From Thermodesulfobacteriota bacterium (GTDB lineage: Bacteria; Desulfobacterota; Binatia; Bin18): 64,000 bases of DNA. Location of the stretch: positions 3,648,001 to 3,712,000 of the forward strand of contig OZ219926.1 in assembly GCA_964291405.2 (NCBI GenBank), in the 5' to 3' direction. Positions 52,062 through 58,721 of the stretch are shown here, piece by piece (positions within the stretch are counted from its first letter, which is position 1; every line of letters starts with the position of its first letter). Both the position numbers and the translations under genes were made by a program. The notes under the pieces are model-generated. The model was not told the DNA's origin and searched no databases. It saw nothing but the letters and a program-made list of their open reading frames with translations.

Positions 52062-53108
52062 CTACGACACTCTGGGCAAGACCTCTTTTCCGAACCGATC
52101 CAGCGAGCCCATGATTTTGTCGTGGGCCAACCCGCCGAAATTTGCCAGCAGACTCACGTTGGTGATGCCCATGGCCTGGATTTCCTTGATGCGCTCGACG
52201 CACTGGTCCGGATCACCAAATATGACTTTATGCGGGTACAGATAGCCCTCATAGTCAAAAGTCTTGAAGGCGTCCTTGAGGCCCTGGTACGGCCGATACT
52301 GATCGGAGTAGGCGGCTTCCTGGTTGGAGGCGGCCACTGCGTTTATATAGCGCATCATGGCCTCGCGGGGCTCTTCCTTCGCCTTTTCCGCGGTCTCGCC
52401 GCAATAAAAATGGTACACCCCGAGGATTTCCGGAGCGTCCGCGTAGCCATGTGCCTGCCGGGTCTGGGTGAAGAGTTGGAGGCGGCCCACCAGGACTTCC
52501 GGATTGGGTTGGGCATAGGGGACGACCATTAAATGATAGCCCATCTTGCCGGCCCATTCGAACGATTCCGGCGTAAAAATACAGGCAACATAGACGGGTG
52601 GTGGTTTCTGAACGGGTTGCGGAATGACCTGGAGATTGCGAACCTTGCGGAATTTGCCGTCGTGAGAGACCCGTCTTTCCGCCCAGGCTTGCATGATGAT
52701 GGCGTGCGCTTCTTCAAACAGCGCCCGACTGTCACCCATATTGCGCTCAAAGGCGTCGTACTCGCCCTTTTGAAATCCCCGTCCAATCCCGAACTCCAAT
52801 CGCCCGCCCGATAAGCAGTCGAGCATGGCATACTCCTCTGCCAGCCGAATCGGGTCCTGGAGCGGCAGGAGGGCAATCCCGGAGCCAATGCGGATGTTCT
52901 TCGTACGTTGGGCAACCGCAGCCCCAATCACCGGAACGGAGGGCAGATGGCCGCCGTAATTATAAAAATGGTGTTCCGCAAACCAGACGGAGTGAAAGCC
53001 GAGAGCCTCAGCCTGGTCGGTCTCCGTGAGCATGTCCAGGTAGAATTGCTCATCGCTGGTATGAAATTCCGGGAAAAAGCTGGGTAAATGAAAGAGTGAG
53101 ATTCGCAT
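52062..53108 (-). CDS. LLM-class flavin-dependent oxidoreductase
   Basis: WFAEHH, RIGSG, PIRLAEE..LD.LSGGRLEFGIGRG; AGGAGG RBS. Confidence 0.9.
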   Translation of the reverse strand: MRISLFHLPSFFPEFHTSDEQFYLDMLTETDQAEALGFHSVWFAEHHFYNYGGHLPSVPVIGAAVAQRTKNIRIGSGIALLPLQDPIRLAEEYAMLDCLSGGRLEFGIGRGFQKGEYDAFERNMGDSRALFEEAHAIIMQAWAERRVSHDGKFRKVRNLQVIPQPVQKPPPVYVACIFTPESFEWAGKMGYHLMVVPYAQPNPEVLVGRLQLFTQTRQAHGYADAPEILGVYHFYCGETAEKAKEEPREAMMRYINAVAASNQEAAYSDQYRPYQGLKDAFKTFDYEGYLYPHKVIFGDPDQCVERIKEIQAMGITNVSLLANFGGLAHDKIMGSLDRFGKEVLPRVS

Positions 53109-53781
53109 ACCGCCTCCTATGGTTCCTCTGTGCGACATGAAGTCGCTTAGAAAGATGGTTCAGATTATTTCTGTGTGAAAGAAAGGACACACAGACAGAG
53201 CCCTGTGAGTGTACACACAGGCATCATATCCCACATGCGTGCTGAGTAATTAGCAGGTGTGAAGCTGGGATAAAAGCCTAATGGGAAGGTAAATCATATA
53301 CCAACCCTGGGCCAGATGCAGACTGGTACGGTGAACGAAAGTGAACCCTTATTTGAAGCGTCGTGACGTAGGACTTCCGAAAGATGATTGATACGGAAGA
53401 ATGAGGCAAATGAACCCCTGCTGTTGATATAGGGGTGAGAGGTCGTAGTAGAGGATTATGGCCCGCGTACACCACAGCCTCCGGCGTAAAGAGGGCACCT
53501 ACCCCAGTCGTCTAACTTTCTATGCGGAACATGGTAAACCCGATGGGGTCTCAGACGAGCATGAGTAAGCCGACCGTAAGGAAGGCCGAATCCCTCAGCG
53601 GGAATGAGAGGTCTCAAGAAGCGAATGCCAGCAGCCGAAAGGTAACGGGAAAAGACCATCACACCCCAAGTGCACCACCCATTACTGCCACAATATGTGG
53701 AAAGCGGGAGGGCACATCATTGAATGGGGTGATCCGGGAAAAAAAAGGTTTTGAGTCCAAGAAAAGGGGTTCAAGGCAGGA

Positions 53782-53970
53782 CTATCCCAGGGACGATAAC
53801 ACAACCTGAATGACAACGGCACAAGAGACTGCAATCTCAGCACCAGTTGTCATCCAAGAAGCTACACGGGAATTCCGTGACTTGAAAAACTTAGCACCTT
53901 GTTTGCACACTGCCTCAGCAGCTTTGCAAAAACGATGGGCGCTTCGTAAAAACTTCTTGAACTTCTTCAT
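53782..53970 (-). CDS. Small basic amphipathic peptide with hydrophobic C-terminus, antisense within the intron
   Basis: 62 aa MKKFKKFLR..IAVSCAVVIQVVLSSLG; GGAGA RBS. Confidence 0.5.
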   Translation of the reverse strand: MKKFKKFLRSAHRFCKAAEAVCKQGAKFFKSRNSRVASWMTTGAEIAVSCAVVIQVVLSSLG

Positions 53971-54160
53971 AACATTCTCCATTTGGTTATGAGGTGAACA
54001 ACACAGGGCGTGAAGTCATCCGGGATAAGAAATCCCAAAGCCTCCTTTCTGTCTCCCTTGTCGCGATCAAGAGAAGACGGGATAAAGACCAAAACTTCCC
54101 AATGGCCTAATAACCGGCTGGATAAAGAGGGAAGGCATCCCCGCCGAAACGGGAAACAGT

Positions 54161-54346
54161 TTAACGTCGTGGACTAGATTCATAGGAACCTGGTAGCACG
54201 TAATTCATGGCATCCTCCGATGGAGGGTAGCTGCTCTGTAGATCATCATCCATAGATGAACTTCCCGGAGAGTCCTTCTCCGAAGCAGCGATAGCCAGAA
54301 GAACGACGGCACCAACACCAAGCCAAAACCAATCTTTGGCCCTCAT
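54161..54346 (-). CDS. Small N-anchored acidic/Ser-rich peptide, antisense within the intron
   Basis: 61 aa MRAKDWFWLGVGAVVLLAIAA..; GGAGG RBS 8 nt upstream. Confidence 0.55.
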   Translation of the reverse strand: MRAKDWFWLGVGAVVLLAIAASEKDSPGSSSMDDDLQSSYPPSEDAMNYVLPGSYESSPRR

Positions 54347-54633
54347 ACGAATAACCTCCAATTCTCAGTTGTGTGAAAAGTATGAGAAACAAGGAAATTA
54401 AGGGGATAGAATACTGGAAGGACTGGTAGTGACAGTCCCAAAAACCTCCTTTCTCCTGGTAAGGCAAGGAAGAAGTGACCAAAGCACAGGAAAGATTGGC
54501 TGGCCCACCCAGCCATGACACCAAAAGAATCAAAACCATGACGGAAAAACAACCTTCCAATCTCTCAGGGTGAAAACCCGCTGACGTGAGACTGGTAGTC
54601 TGTCCAAAAATCTTTGAAGAAAGGACGCACATC

Positions 54634-56310
54634 ATGGCTGACGTGATGATCCAGGCAACTGGAAACGAGGTCGTGACGCGACAATGGCAAGACATCGATT
54701 GGTGTCACAACGCCAAAATCGTGCGCGACCTTCGACACCGTATTTTTCGGGCTTCGCGGCTAGGGGACCGGAGGAAACTTCGGAACCTGCAACGCCTCAT
54801 GCTGAAATGCCGAGCCAATCATGAGATGAGTATCAGACAGGTTACGCAAGTAAGCACAGGGCGCAATACGCCAGGTATTGACAAGGTGATAGTCAAAACG
54901 CCGGCAGCGCGAACCGAGCTAATGGAAGCAATCGCAACCTACAAGCCGGAAAGAGCGCAGCCGGTCAAACGGGTCTTTATTCCCAAACGCAACGGTAAAC
55001 AGCGACCCCTCGGTATCCCGACCATCATGGATAGGGTGATGCAGGCAATTGTCAAGAACGCCTTAGAACCCGAATGGGAAGCCAGGTTTGAATCAAGCGT
55101 CTACGGCTTTCGCCCAGGGCGCAGTTGCCATGATGCCATTCAACGCATCTATGCAAATGTCAAACCGAACTTGAAGAAACATTGGGTCGTTGACGCCGAT
55201 ATCGTTGGAGCCTTCGACAACATCCCCCACGAAACCGTGCTGAACGCAATCCAGGGATTCCCAGGAAAAGCACTCATTCACGCATGGTTACAATCCGGCA
55301 TCCTGGAAGGCACAACACAGAAGCCAACACTCCTGGGAACTCCCCAAGGCGGTGTAATCTCGCCATTACTGCTCAACATTGTCCTGCATGGACTCGAACA
55401 GGCTCTTGATATCCGATACCAGAAAAGTGGAAACCGATACCGGAACATCAGCAACCGAACCCTGGTTAGATATGCAGACGATTTTGTCATCCTCACGGAG
55501 ACAAAAGAAGACGCCGACGCAGCGCAAAAACGAGCAGCAGAATGGCTACAAGAGCGCGGGCTGGAACTCTCACCAGAGAAGACCAGTATCCGACACCTGA
55601 CAGAAGGATTCGACTTTCTCGGATTCCATGTCAGACACTATCCTGACACAAACGTGAAAACAGGATGGAAGCTCTTAATAAAACCCAGCAAGGAAACGGT
55701 CAAAGCTTTCCGATACCGACTCAAACAAGAATGGACGGCTTTAGTCGGACATAACGCAGAGTCAGTCGTAAGAAGGCTGAACCCAATTCTGAGAGGATGG
55801 GGGTATTACTTCCATACGCAAGTATCAAAGGCCATCTTTCAGGACATCGACAACTGGATGTTTCAGAGGGTGTACCGATGGTGTAAGCGGACCCATCCAC
55901 AGAAAAGCTGGGAGTGGATCAAAAACACCTACTTCGGAAAGGCAAAAACCAACAGTCAGGCAAAATGGTACTTCGGAGGAACAGAAGGGCGTCTGCTGAA
56001 ACTCTCAGAGATTCCCATCCAACGACATATCCTAGTCTGGCATACCGCATCACCGGATGATCCACGGCTTGCAACATATTGGGAAGAACGTCGAAAGAAG
56101 GCTTGGAAGAACCTCCCTTCACCACGTCAACGGGATTTGGCCAGAAGGCAAAAGGGGCTCTGCTCGCACTGTCGAGTGAGTCTGTATACTGGTGAGGAAT
56201 TACACACCCACCACCATATCCCAAGGAAAAAGGGCGGAACTGACAAGCGCGAAAATCTGAGACTCGTACACCTCTATTGTCACCAGCAGATACATGGTAA
56301 ACGATGTTGA
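54634..56310 (+). CDS. ltrA: Group II intron reverse transcriptase/maturase with HNH endonuclease
   Basis: TPGID, RPLGIPT..DR, YGFRPGRS, GTPQGGVISPLL, RYADDF, FDFLGF, LNP.LRGW, CSHC..HH..GG..NL..H..CH. Confidence 0.95.
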   Translation: MADVMIQATGNEVVTRQWQDIDWCHNAKIVRDLRHRIFRASRLGDRRKLRNLQRLMLKCRANHEMSIRQVTQVSTGRNTPGIDKVIVKTPAARTELMEAIATYKPERAQPVKRVFIPKRNGKQRPLGIPTIMDRVMQAIVKNALEPEWEARFESSVYGFRPGRSCHDAIQRIYANVKPNLKKHWVVDADIVGAFDNIPHETVLNAIQGFPGKALIHAWLQSGILEGTTQKPTLLGTPQGGVISPLLLNIVLHGLEQALDIRYQKSGNRYRNISNRTLVRYADDFVILTETKEDADAAQKRAAEWLQERGLELSPEKTSIRHLTEGFDFLGFHVRHYPDTNVKTGWKLLIKPSKETVKAFRYRLKQEWTALVGHNAESVVRRLNPILRGWGYYFHTQVSKAIFQDIDNWMFQRVYRWCKRTHPQKSWEWIKNTYFGKAKTNSQAKWYFGGTEGRLLKLSEIPIQRHILVWHTASPDDPRLATYWEERRKKAWKNLPSPRQRDLARRQKGLCSHCRVSLYTGEELHTHHHIPRKKGGTDKRENLRLVHLYCHQQIHGKRC

Positions 56311-56957
56311 GAAAGGTGTTGAAAAGGGGCGCAAAAGGATAATCCAAAGAAAAGAATACAGGGTCCGGTGTGAGCCTTGGCCCACACCGGAGGTCCTGCA
56401 TCCTAGCTTGCCAGCTCTAGGATAATCCACACGGCTACCAAGAAACGGTAGTCAATACGGAGATGCATGGTAAAATCCATACAAACACCTATTTTTGTGG
56501 CTCAAAGGCCGAAGCTGAGTCAGCCGTAAAGGTAGGACGGTAGGATTGAAAATCCCTACCAACTGTGTAGGATTTACCAGCACACCGTCAGCGCTGATAA
56601 GCCACCAACTGTTTGCAGCAGTTGGTGGCGGCTTCAAAGCCCGTCCCTTGCGGACGGGCTTCCCTTATTTTCCAGCACAAACAACACAAGCCGTAAAGTA
56701 CGACAGACTGCTTGAGCCGTGTGCGGTGAAAGTCGCACGCACGGTTCTTAGGGGGGAAGGGCCTTGTGAGGGGCCTGACCTACCCGATTCATAGCCGACT
56801 TTCCCCCTGGAAAGAAGGCGGGAGAGGCGGAGTCTGCCTCTGGGGGTACGTTGAACTGGATGCGTGGGTTTGCTAGTTGGAGAGCTTATTTACTATTATA
56901 GAGAAAGCGCAGATAGACGGTCTGCATAAGAGTTGGTCGGTGTTATAGCAGGAGAGG

Positions 56958-58721
56958 GTGGTGATGCAGGCAAAATGTCCGGGATGGCGTGCGGCGCTCT
57001 TGTTCGTCGTTTTGTTCGTCGGAGTGTGGTCCGGCTCTGCGTTTGGAAACGTTGATAAGCACGCGTCTCCCGCGTTTTCTCCGCTCCCCTATCCACAAGC
57101 CCTCCGACCCCAGGTCGAGTTCTGGACCAAGATTTTCGCCACCTACTCGGAATACCAGGTCGTCGTTCACGACGCGGTCTATTTGGACAAGGTGTACGCC
57201 GTCCTCGATTTTCGACCGCTCTTAAAGAAGCATAGCGAAGCCAAGGCCCGGAAGCTGAAAGCCAAGCGGACCAAGCAGGAACTCAGAAAAATTCGGGCCA
57301 CCCTGCGGAAACTCCATAAACACGGTGCAAAAGGGCGAACGCTGAGTACGCGTGAGAAAAAAATTCGGGCGCTCTTCAGAGATGTCAAGGAACGCCACAA
57401 GTTCCGTAAGGCCGCGGCCAAAGGGCGACTGCGGGCACAGTCCGGGATACGGGAGCGCTTTCACCAGAGCCTGCGCCTTTCCGGTCGGTATCTGCCCAGG
57501 ATGGAAAAGATATTCCGTCAAAAAGGACTCCCGGTTGTCCTGACTCGCCTCCCACTGATCGAATCGTCTTTCAATATTGAGGCCTATTCAAAAGTTGGTG
57601 CGGCCGGCATTTGGCAATTCATGCCCGCGACCGGGCGCTTGTTTCTGACGATTAACCATGTGGTTGACGAGCGCCTTGACCCCATCATTGCCACCCGGGC
57701 TGCCGCCGACTTGCTCAAGTCAAATTATGACAGGTTGCAAACCTGGCCGCTTGCAGTCACGGCCTATAACCATGGCCCGTCCGGCATGGCGCGCGCCGTT
57801 CGGAAAGTCGGCACGCGCGATATTGTTCCCATTATCCGCCGCTACAAAAGCCGGACGTTCGGGTTTGCTTCGCGGAATTTCTATGCCGAGTTGCTGGCGG
57901 CCATTGAGGTTGAGAAAAACAGCGCCAAATATTTCGGCCCCATCAAACGCGACCCTCTCCTCCGGTATGATGAAGTTGATCTTCAGCATTTTGTTTCCCT
58001 CGAAAATCTGGCCAGAGCTGCCAACACCAGTACCGAGCGGTTAGTGGCGCTCAACCCGGCCTTTGGGTCACTGGTTCGGAACGGGAAACTCCACGTCCCA
58101 CGCGGCCACCGTTTACGTATCCCGGCCGGTGCTCGGAAAGACTTCGACCGGCGTTACGCCGCGCTCAGCCCTCGGGCCAAGGCCGACCAACAGGCCGCTG
58201 CCTTTGCTTTTCATAAGGTCCGGCGTGGGCAGACGCTGGGTGGTATTGCGCAGCGCTACGGGACGAGCGCTCGAACTCTGCAACGCCTGAACGGACTCAG
58301 AAGCGCGCATTTCATCCGCATCGGACAACGTCTGCGCGTCCCTCTGAGAGGGAAGGGCAGACGGTCGACGACCCGATCCGTCCAGGTGGCACGGGCAGCT
58401 TCGCAGGACGGGACGCATACCGTACGTCGGGGAGAATCGCTCGGAAAGATCGCCCAGCGCTACAACACAACCGTGGCGGCGCTCCAACGGCTCAACGACA
58501 TTAAAAACGCCGCGCTGATACCGGTCGGGAAAAAACTGCGCCTCTCGGCTGACTCTCCTGGTAAAGCACGGTATGTCAAACACCGGGTCCGGCGTGGCCA
58601 AACGCTCGGTAGCATTGCCCGCCGCTACGGCACAAAGGTGTCCATTCTGAAGCGTCTGAATGGTGTGAAGAACGTCAGACGCCTGCAAATCGGCCAGGTG
58701 TTGCGTATTCCAACGGGCTGA
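56958..58721 (+). CDS. MltD-like lytic transglycosylase with three LysM domains
   Basis: IESSF..AAGIWQFM, TAYNHG, three H.VRRG.TL..IA.RY repeats. Confidence 0.9.
   Translation: MVMQAKCPGWRAALLFVVLFVGVWSGSAFGNVDKHASPAFSPLPYPQALRPQVEFWTKIFATYSEYQVVVHDAVYLDKVYAVLDFRPLLKKHSEAKARKLKAKRTKQELRKIRATLRKLHKHGAKGRTLSTREKKIRALFRDVKERHKFRKAAAKGRLRAQSGIRERFHQSLRLSGRYLPRMEKIFRQKGLPVVLTRLPLIESSFNIEAYSKVGAAGIWQFMPATGRLFLTINHVVDERLDPIIATRAAADLLKSNYDRLQTWPLAVTAYNHGPSGMARAVRKVGTRDIVPIIRRYKSRTFGFASRNFYAELLAAIEVEKNSAKYFGPIKRDPLLRYDEVDLQHFVSLENLARAANTSTERLVALNPAFGSLVRNGKLHVPRGHRLRIPAGARKDFDRRYAALSPRAKADQQAAAFAFHKVRRGQTLGGIAQRYGTSARTLQRLNGLRSAHFIRIGQRLRVPLRGKGRRSTTRSVQVARAASQDGTHTVRRGESLGKIAQRYNTTVAALQRLNDIKNAALIPVGKKLRLSADSPGKARYVKHRVRRGQTLGSIARRYGTKVSILKRLNGVKNVRRLQIGQVLRIPTG

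Follow-up and report, generated by a model that had tools for sequence, protein, structure and literature searches.

A mobile bacterial group II intron with predicted cassette-like genes for small membrane proteins on the strand opposite to its ribozyme

To our knowledge, bacterial group II introns are regarded as minimal retroelements that carry only their own reverse transcriptase (RT) gene, and cargo in domain IV of the ribozyme is known through engineering, not in nature. The domain IV loop is dispensable for catalysis, as established from engineered targetrons. Here we describe a complete group II intron of 3659 nt at 53130-56788 (plus strand) of a window of 64,000 nucleotides, by which we mean the whole stretch of DNA that was analysed (contig OZ219926.1, positions 3,648,001 to 3,712,000, of GenBank assembly GCA_964291405.2, Thermodesulfobacteriota bacterium). 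Ll.LtrB-type introns and targetrons (PMC8524655, PMC3898094) have the ribozyme domains in common with it and likewise encode an RT in domain IV; they too insert site-specifically, with an empty-site allele, and tolerate extra sequence in the domain IV loop. Engineered cargo is reported to lower the insertion efficiency (PMC8524655). Compared with these targetrons, the extra sequence of the present intron is natural and variable, and it encodes, on the opposite strand, predicted small membrane proteins with their own Shine-Dalgarno sequences (SDs). A first-pass annotation had proposed a cargo-bearing intron, and the comparisons below support a reading in which it carries cassette-like antisense small-protein genes. 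We put the probability at about 0.72 that the 912 nt concerned represent two gene cassettes opposite to the intron strand, in two slots either side of a short ATAACC motif.

The end of domain III (53652) and the RT start (54634) are 981 nt apart, in line with the roughly 1 kb initially estimated. The two minus-strand open reading frames (ORFs) with good ribosome-binding sites and the repeated leader motif that had been noted in this interval were all found again at the same positions. The insert, which we call V2, has a GC content of 47% compared to 58% for the genome and contains the following features.

53653-54565: V2, lineage-variable insert of 912 nt between domain III and the pre-RT region, with two predicted opposite-strand cassettes.
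53782-53970, minus strand: ORF-A in slot 1, 62 amino acids (aa) plus stop, GGAG 6 nt before the ATG; alternative ATG at 53982.
53967-54038, minus strand: putative short frame 1, 23 aa from TTG, whose TGA overlaps the ORF-A ATG as ATGA.
54033-54050, minus strand: leader motif copy 1, reading AGAAAGGAGG on the minus strand, then the first arm of a hairpin.
54111-54125, plus strand: ATAACCGGCTGGATA motif (ATAACC motif) dividing slot 1 from slot 2; in relatives it follows domain III or lies at the end of V2.
54129-54142, minus strand: weak terminator-like hairpin of 5 pairs just past the ORF-B stop, with a 7-bp hairpin beside it (weak evidence).
54161-54346, minus strand: ORF-B in slot 2, 61 aa plus stop, GGAGG 8 nt before the ATG.
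54343-54441, minus strand: putative short frame 2, 32 aa from TTG, whose TGA overlaps the ORF-B ATG as ATGA.
54436-54454, minus strand: leader motif copy 2, likewise reading AGAAAGGAGG, then the first arm of a hairpin.

Comparison with related introns delimited the insert. Three introns in the same genus (genomes G018, G023 and G010), whose RT proteins are 60-65% identical to that of the window, match it at the DNA level as far as 53651/53652, and the match resumes at 54565-54568, 68 nt upstream of the RT ATG. Their V2 equivalents measure 452, 420 and 206 nt, respectively, and can be aligned neither with the window nor with one another; V2 DNA had no matches in 27 other genomes of the genus. 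The final 102 nt of domain III then served as query in a survey of 401 genomes of the class, which placed the lineage in 12 of them; six of these have one or two antisense ORFs with a strong SD in the insert. Virtually no insert is present in G601, G604, G615 and G603 (two copies), where the ATAACC motif follows 3-4 nt past domain III. The V2 equivalent in the latter three genomes is about 26-33 nt long and the RT starts about 95-100 nt past domain III, while the G601 contig ends before any RT is reached. With the short insert of G593 (V2 of 112 nt, ATAACC motif 40 nt past domain III), six intron copies in five genomes thus have 26-112 nt at the V2 site and the motif 3-40 nt past domain III. 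Loose ends of related contigs in the public run X1 also pass from 53642/53651 straight into the ATAACC motif, which in insert-less introns is conserved about 95 nt before the RT start. Because the stretch is absent or unrelated in relatives, the 912 nt are inserted sequence at a permissive place in domain IV and not conserved ribozyme structure. The comparison of domain IV among homologous introns that had been suggested as a check thus revealed variable cargo (the window, G018, G023, G010, G594 and G456).

ORF-B comprises an N-terminal hydrophobic helix, an acidic tail and a conserved C-terminal motif (hydrophobic segments of all cargo peptides were judged by eye). A word-indexed protein search with ORF-B recovered only ORF-B itself, and the Atlas gave matches below 0.9 to unnamed clusters only. 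When 201 genomes of the class were searched in all six frames, a 58-aa homologue emerged in G594, which belongs to the same family but to another genus (53% identity, E 7.2e-13). The two proteins agree in 31 of 61 alignment columns, and the sole gap spans three codons and is in frame. The Nei-Gojobori dN/dS ratio of the pair is 0.31 (dS 1.3), with codon-position identities of 69/64/52%. The G594 homologue lies antisense in an intron relic, past domain III and the ATAACC motif; the only RT remnant found in that genome is on a separate contig (C39) and has two stop codons, followed by an intact domain V. The relic has the order domain III, a glycine-zipper homologue with the SD AGAAAGGAG (slot 1), ATAACC motif and ORF-B homologue, and the window has ORF-A, ATAACC motif (54111-54125) and ORF-B. 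The same family is thus paired with a different neighbouring cassette, which agrees with the cassette-like units postulated at first. Profile searching in 55 genomes of this taxonomic family added a third member, of 81 aa, in G042 (E 8.7e-10); it has no surrounding intron, and its ATG overlaps the stop of a 142-aa membrane-protein ORF. The alignment of all three members retains 17 invariant columns and comprises a hydrophobic helix, an acidic linker and a C-terminal block. These alignments and substitution rates place ORF-B in a family of small proteins that is subject to purifying selection and also occurs outside introns, and at least this ORF is very probably a genuine cargo gene.

The operon in G042 (L069:687-2156, minus strand) consists of the 142-aa membrane protein, the 81-aa ORF-B member and a 278-aa ankyrin-repeat protein, the last with a weak PADLOC match to PDC-M72A (2.3e-08).

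The intron that carries the insert has a ribozyme core recognised by Rfam (RF00029, 68.6 bits with a gathering score of 40; RF02012, 39.8 with a gathering score of 34) and a GTGCG start, and its protein matches four Pfam families above their cut-offs (RVT_N 9e-24, RVT_1 4.3e-47, GIIM 3.5e-18, HNH 1.6e-08). Its parts, all on the plus strand, are as follows.

53130: 5' end GTGCG, read from the sequence.
53130-53652: domains I-III; blastn homology to the G018, G023 and G010 introns stops at 53651/53652.
53201-53288: Rfam D1-D4-7 match.
54566-54633: conserved pre-RT region with the SD of the RT gene, where homology to relatives resumes; we take it, by analogy with other introns, to be domain IVa, the RT-binding site.
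54634-56310: intron-encoded protein of 558 aa with RT, maturase and HNH endonuclease (Pfam).
56311-56711: V3, variable stretch from the RT stop to domain V, unconserved among relatives, used as an internal control.
56712-56788: domain V/VI and intron 3' end (Rfam RF00029, 68.6 bits), with the joint at 56788.

The intron is present in one copy in its own 4.95-Mb genome. An intron-less allele was found in the public runs X1 and X2, in which contigs join 53128 to 56788 and skip the 3659 nt, and this joint fixes the intron boundaries within 1 nt. Intron-bearing contigs of the same runs show zero differences over 3634 and 2871 nt; the depths of the intron-less and intron forms are 44.6 and 28.9 in X1, and 5.64 plus 2.41 and 2.6 in X2. 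The coexistence of empty-site and intron-bearing alleles points to a recent, polymorphic insertion. The intron is mobile in the population, with a precise presence/absence polymorphism at the insertion site, and its cargo therefore travels along with it.

Slot 1 holds ORF-A in the window and a glycine-zipper gene in G018, G594 and G456, which has the further homologues P0004 and P0005. The glycine-zipper gene encodes 67-102 aa and has a dN/dS of 0.18-0.28 where synonymous change is unsaturated. It stands alone in G018 and G456, and in the latter it is intact and antisense beside domain III in a relic of roughly 0.8 kb. The cargo ORFs remain open in both decayed RT-less relics, G594 and G456. 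On the basis of these ratios, the slot-1 glycine-zipper gene in the three relatives is a real conserved gene. Two conserved families and at least three orphans in two fixed places, in varied combinations, support the description 'cassette-like'.

One of these homologues, of 72 aa, also lies as an ordinary gene inside a type III CRISPR-Cas locus of G019 (L056:1489-1707, minus strand), flanked by a Csm6-family ring-nuclease gene (NE0113, 5.5e-71) and by Cas6-like and Cas10-like ORFs, the latter two with weak matches below the curated cut-offs. The proteins of the G018 cassette and the G019 locus are 72% identical, yet blastn between the two gave no DNA match.

ORF-A has a basic N-terminal half and a hydrophobic C-terminal segment, and the other slot-1 products resemble it generally in having a basic N-terminal part followed by a hydrophobic segment. 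The test of peptide conservation that the first-pass annotation had recommended succeeded for ORF-B and found no homologue of ORF-A. The six-frame search of the 201 genomes with ORF-A gave noise, the best non-self hit (E 0.0017 per genome) lying inside longer unrelated frames, and no usable match was obtained from the Atlas, Pfam or PADLOC. ORF-A was also considered as a member of the glycine-zipper family, to which it is not related (profile probability 1.2%). Its slot-1 position, its own SD, the leader that it has in common with ORF-B and its likeness to other slot-1 products make us lean towards ORF-A being genuine.

Two further candidate relationships were rejected: the 69-aa upstream frame did not align with the 142-aa protein of G042, and that protein scored a profile probability of 9.3% as a glycine-zipper member.

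The first-pass annotation had described the same upstream architecture for both ORFs. This stands as far as the leader motif, the hairpin that follows it on the minus strand and the coupled short frame are concerned; the two units share nothing else that can be aligned. Only the 18-19-nt leader motif aligned between them, with a score of 26 compared to 19.1 +/- 2.2 in shuffles (1 of 100 shuffles reached 26), and the peptides are dissimilar, so that an origin of the units as diverged tandem duplicates was rejected. The motif core CCTCCTTTCT occurs 11 times in the 4.95-Mb genome (both strands), two of these copies lying here, within 404 nt. One other copy sits in the context ggatcaCCTCCTTTCT, presumably the 3' end of the 16S rRNA, which suggests that the minus-strand motif is a perfect SD for the host. 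The leader motifs lie about 70-95 nt upstream of each main ORF.

Another reading is decaying cargo, in which each short frame and main ORF would be a longer gene split by a frameshift, the SD motifs would mark the original starts, and only ORF-B or neither product would be functional. Neither perfect SD motif is followed by a proper ATG; each opens a short frame whose end coincides with the next ATG, and G018, G023 and G594 have a strong SD directly before the ATG of the main ORF, all of which would be expected after such decay. However, the starts of ORF-B and its G594 homologue align, indicating that ORF-B is not truncated at its N terminus, and the ATGA overlap is the same coupling as in the G042 operon. 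The intron copy is moreover mobile and young, its sequence being the same in two runs that also contain the empty-site allele, and we therefore consider decay improbable compared to two intact cassettes.

The minus-strand bias recurs in the related introns. The V2 equivalents contain minus-strand ATG ORFs with a strong SD of 81 aa in G018 (glycine/alanine-rich), 94 aa in G023 and 43 aa in G010 (hydrophobic C terminus), and G594 and G456 also have antisense SD-led ORFs beside domain III. Dinucleotide shuffles of each V2 were scored for minus-strand ORFs that begin with ATG, follow an SD core and reach 40 aa or more, by criteria set post hoc, after the pattern had been seen; the fraction of shuffles that matched the observation was 1.8% for the window (at least 2 ORFs), at most 0.1% for G018, 0.9-3.2% for G023 and 0.4% for G010. 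No SD-led ATG ORF of at least 40 aa was present on the sense strand of any of these four V2 sequences, and no SD-led ATG or GTG ORF of at least 40 aa on the opposite strand of V3 in the four introns. Terminator-like hairpins of 11 bp (G018) and 12 bp (G023) with a T-rich tail lie at most 10 nt past the antisense stop; none follows the antisense stop in G010 or G594.

Several points weigh against the cargo reading, in addition to the post hoc criteria. The sense strand is T-poor (19.6% T) and the longest minus-strand ORF of its shuffles averages 89 aa, so that minus-strand ORFs of about 60-90 aa, skewed to hydrophobic residues, are common by composition and ORF length alone is little evidence. 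Of the three sigma-70-like promoter sites recognised in 53000-57000, none is on the minus strand, and the relatives' loci have none on that strand either; the terminator-like elements of the window are weak, and the perfect SD motifs both precede TTG at 2-3 nt, never ATG. ORF-A finds only itself among 5.77 billion proteins and, having no homologue in the collections searched, could have arisen by chance; for the ORF-B family, three members are known in all. Only 12 genomes represent the lineage, and cargo is present in 6. RT-protein scans of genome contigs and metagenomes recovered solely relatives of at most 57% identity (5 and 22 loci), and the distant introns (RT 35-57% identity; 24 loci examined) had no consistent antisense SD-led ORF. 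Finally, no family, fold or defence-system match assigns a function to the cargo. Pfam, NCBIfam and PADLOC held no family for ORF-A, ORF-B or the relatives' peptides, although such libraries often miss short toxins, and PADLOC at E <= 0.1 gave nothing for ORF-A, ORF-B, the glycine-zipper peptides, the G023 peptide or the protein of a second cargo site, V1 (see below); a defence module had been suggested as another possibility in the first-pass annotation. The folds of the minus-strand leaders and post-ORF sequences were no more stable than shuffles.

Some of these points would suit a non-coding spacer, in which V2 is fast-evolving domain IV filler whose ORFs arise from the T-poor composition of the sense strand and whose CCUCC tracts have a role in the sense RNA, for instance in masking the SD of the RT gene. 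ORF-A is an orphan without a detectable minus-strand promoter in the region searched, and the predicted sense fold (minimum-energy and centroid) has the RT SD base-paired with the anti-SD tract that is complementary to the slot-2 leader motif. Composition does not, however, account for the dN/dS of 0.18-0.31 of ORF-B and the glycine-zipper gene (synonymous change near-saturated or saturated), both of which also occur outside introns, nor for the combination of SD, ATG and ORF on the minus strand only in 4/4 V2 and in 0/4 V3 controls of like composition. Introns that lack V2 and such a tract still keep an open RT frame (G603 was looked at), and the fold of the sense stretch is no more stable than its shuffles (z = 0.00). 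For ORF-B the spacer is largely refuted by these comparisons, and for V2 as a whole we regard it as very improbable.

Under the preferred reading of two antisense cassettes, the domain IV loop would tolerate inserts because it is dispensable for catalysis, and inserts could thus survive there. Cassettes might survive in the antisense orientation only, since a terminator read along the sense strand would cut the intron RNA short and an antisense one would be harmless to it. Each perfect SD motif with its coupled short frame may drive, couple or stabilise translation of the main ORF; ORF-A would be expressed as well, as the slot-1 counterpart, and sense transcription of the intron and antisense expression of the cassettes would antagonise each other. 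The products may work jointly in the membrane, with an ORF-B partner for a basic peptide that is tail-anchored or has a glycine zipper, for example a toxin with its immunity protein or regulator. This guess draws on the adjacency of the two families in G594 and on the translational coupling to a membrane protein in G042, and we offer the toxin/partner pair tentatively, with the odds somewhat against it. We find it doubtful that the intron RNA acts as an antisense repressor of the cargo genes. About as doubtful is the wider picture of a retro-mobile cassette platform, whose two domain IV slots would accept, exchange and spread antisense genes for small membrane proteins (a pore-former or toxin in slot 1, an ORF-B partner in slot 2), with the intron transcript as antisense regulator and genes that persist, domesticated, after the intron has decayed. 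In this picture, the family that also occurs in a type III CRISPR-Cas locus might take part in abortive infection or mobile-element conflict.

Addiction of the type I toxin-antitoxin kind, put forward in the first-pass annotation, is one variety of the cargo reading and no alternative to it. Here ORF-A and/or ORF-B would be membrane toxins on a minus-strand mRNA that is blocked or destroyed by the complementary intron RNA (precursor or lariat), so that cells silencing or losing this RNA would be harmed. The proteins are small (61-62 aa), each with one hydrophobic segment, and are fully overlapped by the opposite transcript by construction. A structured leader with an SD far from the ORF start, as predicted here, resembles that of type I toxin mRNAs, and the two strands may influence each other, as the predicted fold pairs the leader-motif complement with the RT SD. 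On the other hand, the 35-aa acidic soluble tail of ORF-B with its conserved motif and the length of the glycine-zipper gene product (67-102 aa) are both atypical for type I toxins, and no Pfam toxin family was matched. The cargo ORFs are also intact in RT-less relics, of which that in G456 lacks most of the ribozyme as well, and the homologues in G042 and G019 are ordinary operon genes with no intron opposite. As neither relics nor non-intron homologues can make the full intron RNA, the antitoxin idea fits poorly, and we judge addiction unlikely.

Other forms of the lineage were also encountered. G496 (L080) contains an RT-less mini-intron with domains I-III and V and no protein gene, and the RT-less relics in G594 (L064/L070) and G456 (L072) retain just the accessory ORFs and domain III. 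Six metagenome contigs (L033, L035, L036, L038, L043 and L044) have 2-3 separate RT matches, some mutually interrupting, which suggests nested introns (twintrons) in relatives.

V1 lies before the end of domain III, at the equivalent of 53551-53563, and holds a sense-strand gene of about 140 aa in G018, G010 and G594, with a fragment in G456 (L002:3811-4251, minus strand; L004:2949-3380, minus; L064:297-716, plus; L072:1624-1830, minus); the gene is absent from the window. The G018 and G010 proteins are 45% identical (E 1e-41). At E <= 1e-3 the family comprises 56 representatives; Pfam gave no match. An AlphaFold model of the V1 protein (pLDDT 94.5) showed its best likeness, at a borderline level, to frataxin/CyaY-like alpha-beta sandwiches (Z 8-9.2), and Foldseek with this model gave no matches at E <= 0.001.

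The intron is inserted in the divergent intergenic region between a minus-strand oxidoreductase gene and a plus-strand transglycosylase-like gene, starting 21 nt upstream of the likely ATG of the former (53108, minus strand) and ending about 170 nt before the latter (interval 56789-56957). The oxidoreductase gene is thereby cut off from the intergenic region expected to hold its promoter, and in intron-bearing cells its transcription would have to cross 3.7 kb of antisense intron or start at an intron-internal promoter, possibly the cassettes' own. The empty-site allele coexists with this separating insertion in the same samples. Before domain V (56601-56671), the sense strand has a terminator-like element at 56637-56661, a 10-bp GC-rich hairpin with a T-rich tail, preceded by a second perfect hairpin; a sense terminator at this place would be odd in a functional intron.

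Natural antisense cargo in group II introns was not described in our full-text searches (the passages of PMC6907783 included), whose scope leaves out subscription journals and supplements, so that a prior description is possible. If the cassette reading is true, group II introns would be able to spread accessory genes horizontally, and the locus would provide natural design rules for cargo (site, orientation, handling of terminators and a size of up to about 0.9 kb in a still-mobile intron). It would also make it possible to test whether a ribozyme transcript can serve as an antisense regulator as well, and add at least two unannotated families of small membrane proteins, one of them linked to type III CRISPR-Cas.

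Several known systems share single traits with this arrangement. The leader motifs recall the STAB-SD of Bacillus thuringiensis cry3A, an mRNA stabiliser in which a perfect SD lies in the 5' leader far from the start codon: here too a perfect 16S 3'-end complement, AGAAAGGAGG, is found about 70-95 nt upstream of the main ORFs, with no ATG at a working distance. Unlike the STAB-SD, the motif is followed at 2-3 nt by TTG and a coupled short frame, and may thus be a true start site. Fungal mitochondrial group II introns encode LAGLIDADG proteins and group IIC-attC introns associate with integron cassettes, which sets a precedent for unusual ORFs or cassette association. However, the LAGLIDADG ORFs are sense-oriented homing endonucleases and the IIC-attC cassettes lie outside the intron, whereas the genes proposed here are exchangeable, antisense and inside domain IV. 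The likeness to integron cassettes is limited to exchangeable units at a fixed place; the list of nearby ORFs contains no integrase, and no attC search was made. Type I toxin-antitoxin systems (PMC2887945, PMC8309996, PMC5961336), in which an antisense RNA represses a small hydrophobic toxin, are alike in their small single-helix membrane proteins overlapped by an opposite transcript. Type I systems beside CRISPR arrays are reported in PMC5961336, and one intron cargo family is likewise found in a CRISPR-Cas locus. They differ in that the antisense partner here would be a 3.7-kb catalytic intron and not a small RNA, that no homology to known toxins was found and that ORF-B has a long, conserved tail. 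Tn3-family transposons with toxin-antitoxin passengers (bioRxiv 10.1101/848275) offer the parallel of a mobile element with small accessory modules in its mobility unit. Such an element is a DNA transposon with type II protein-protein pairs, in contrast to the present retroelement with opposite-strand ORFs inside its ribozyme.

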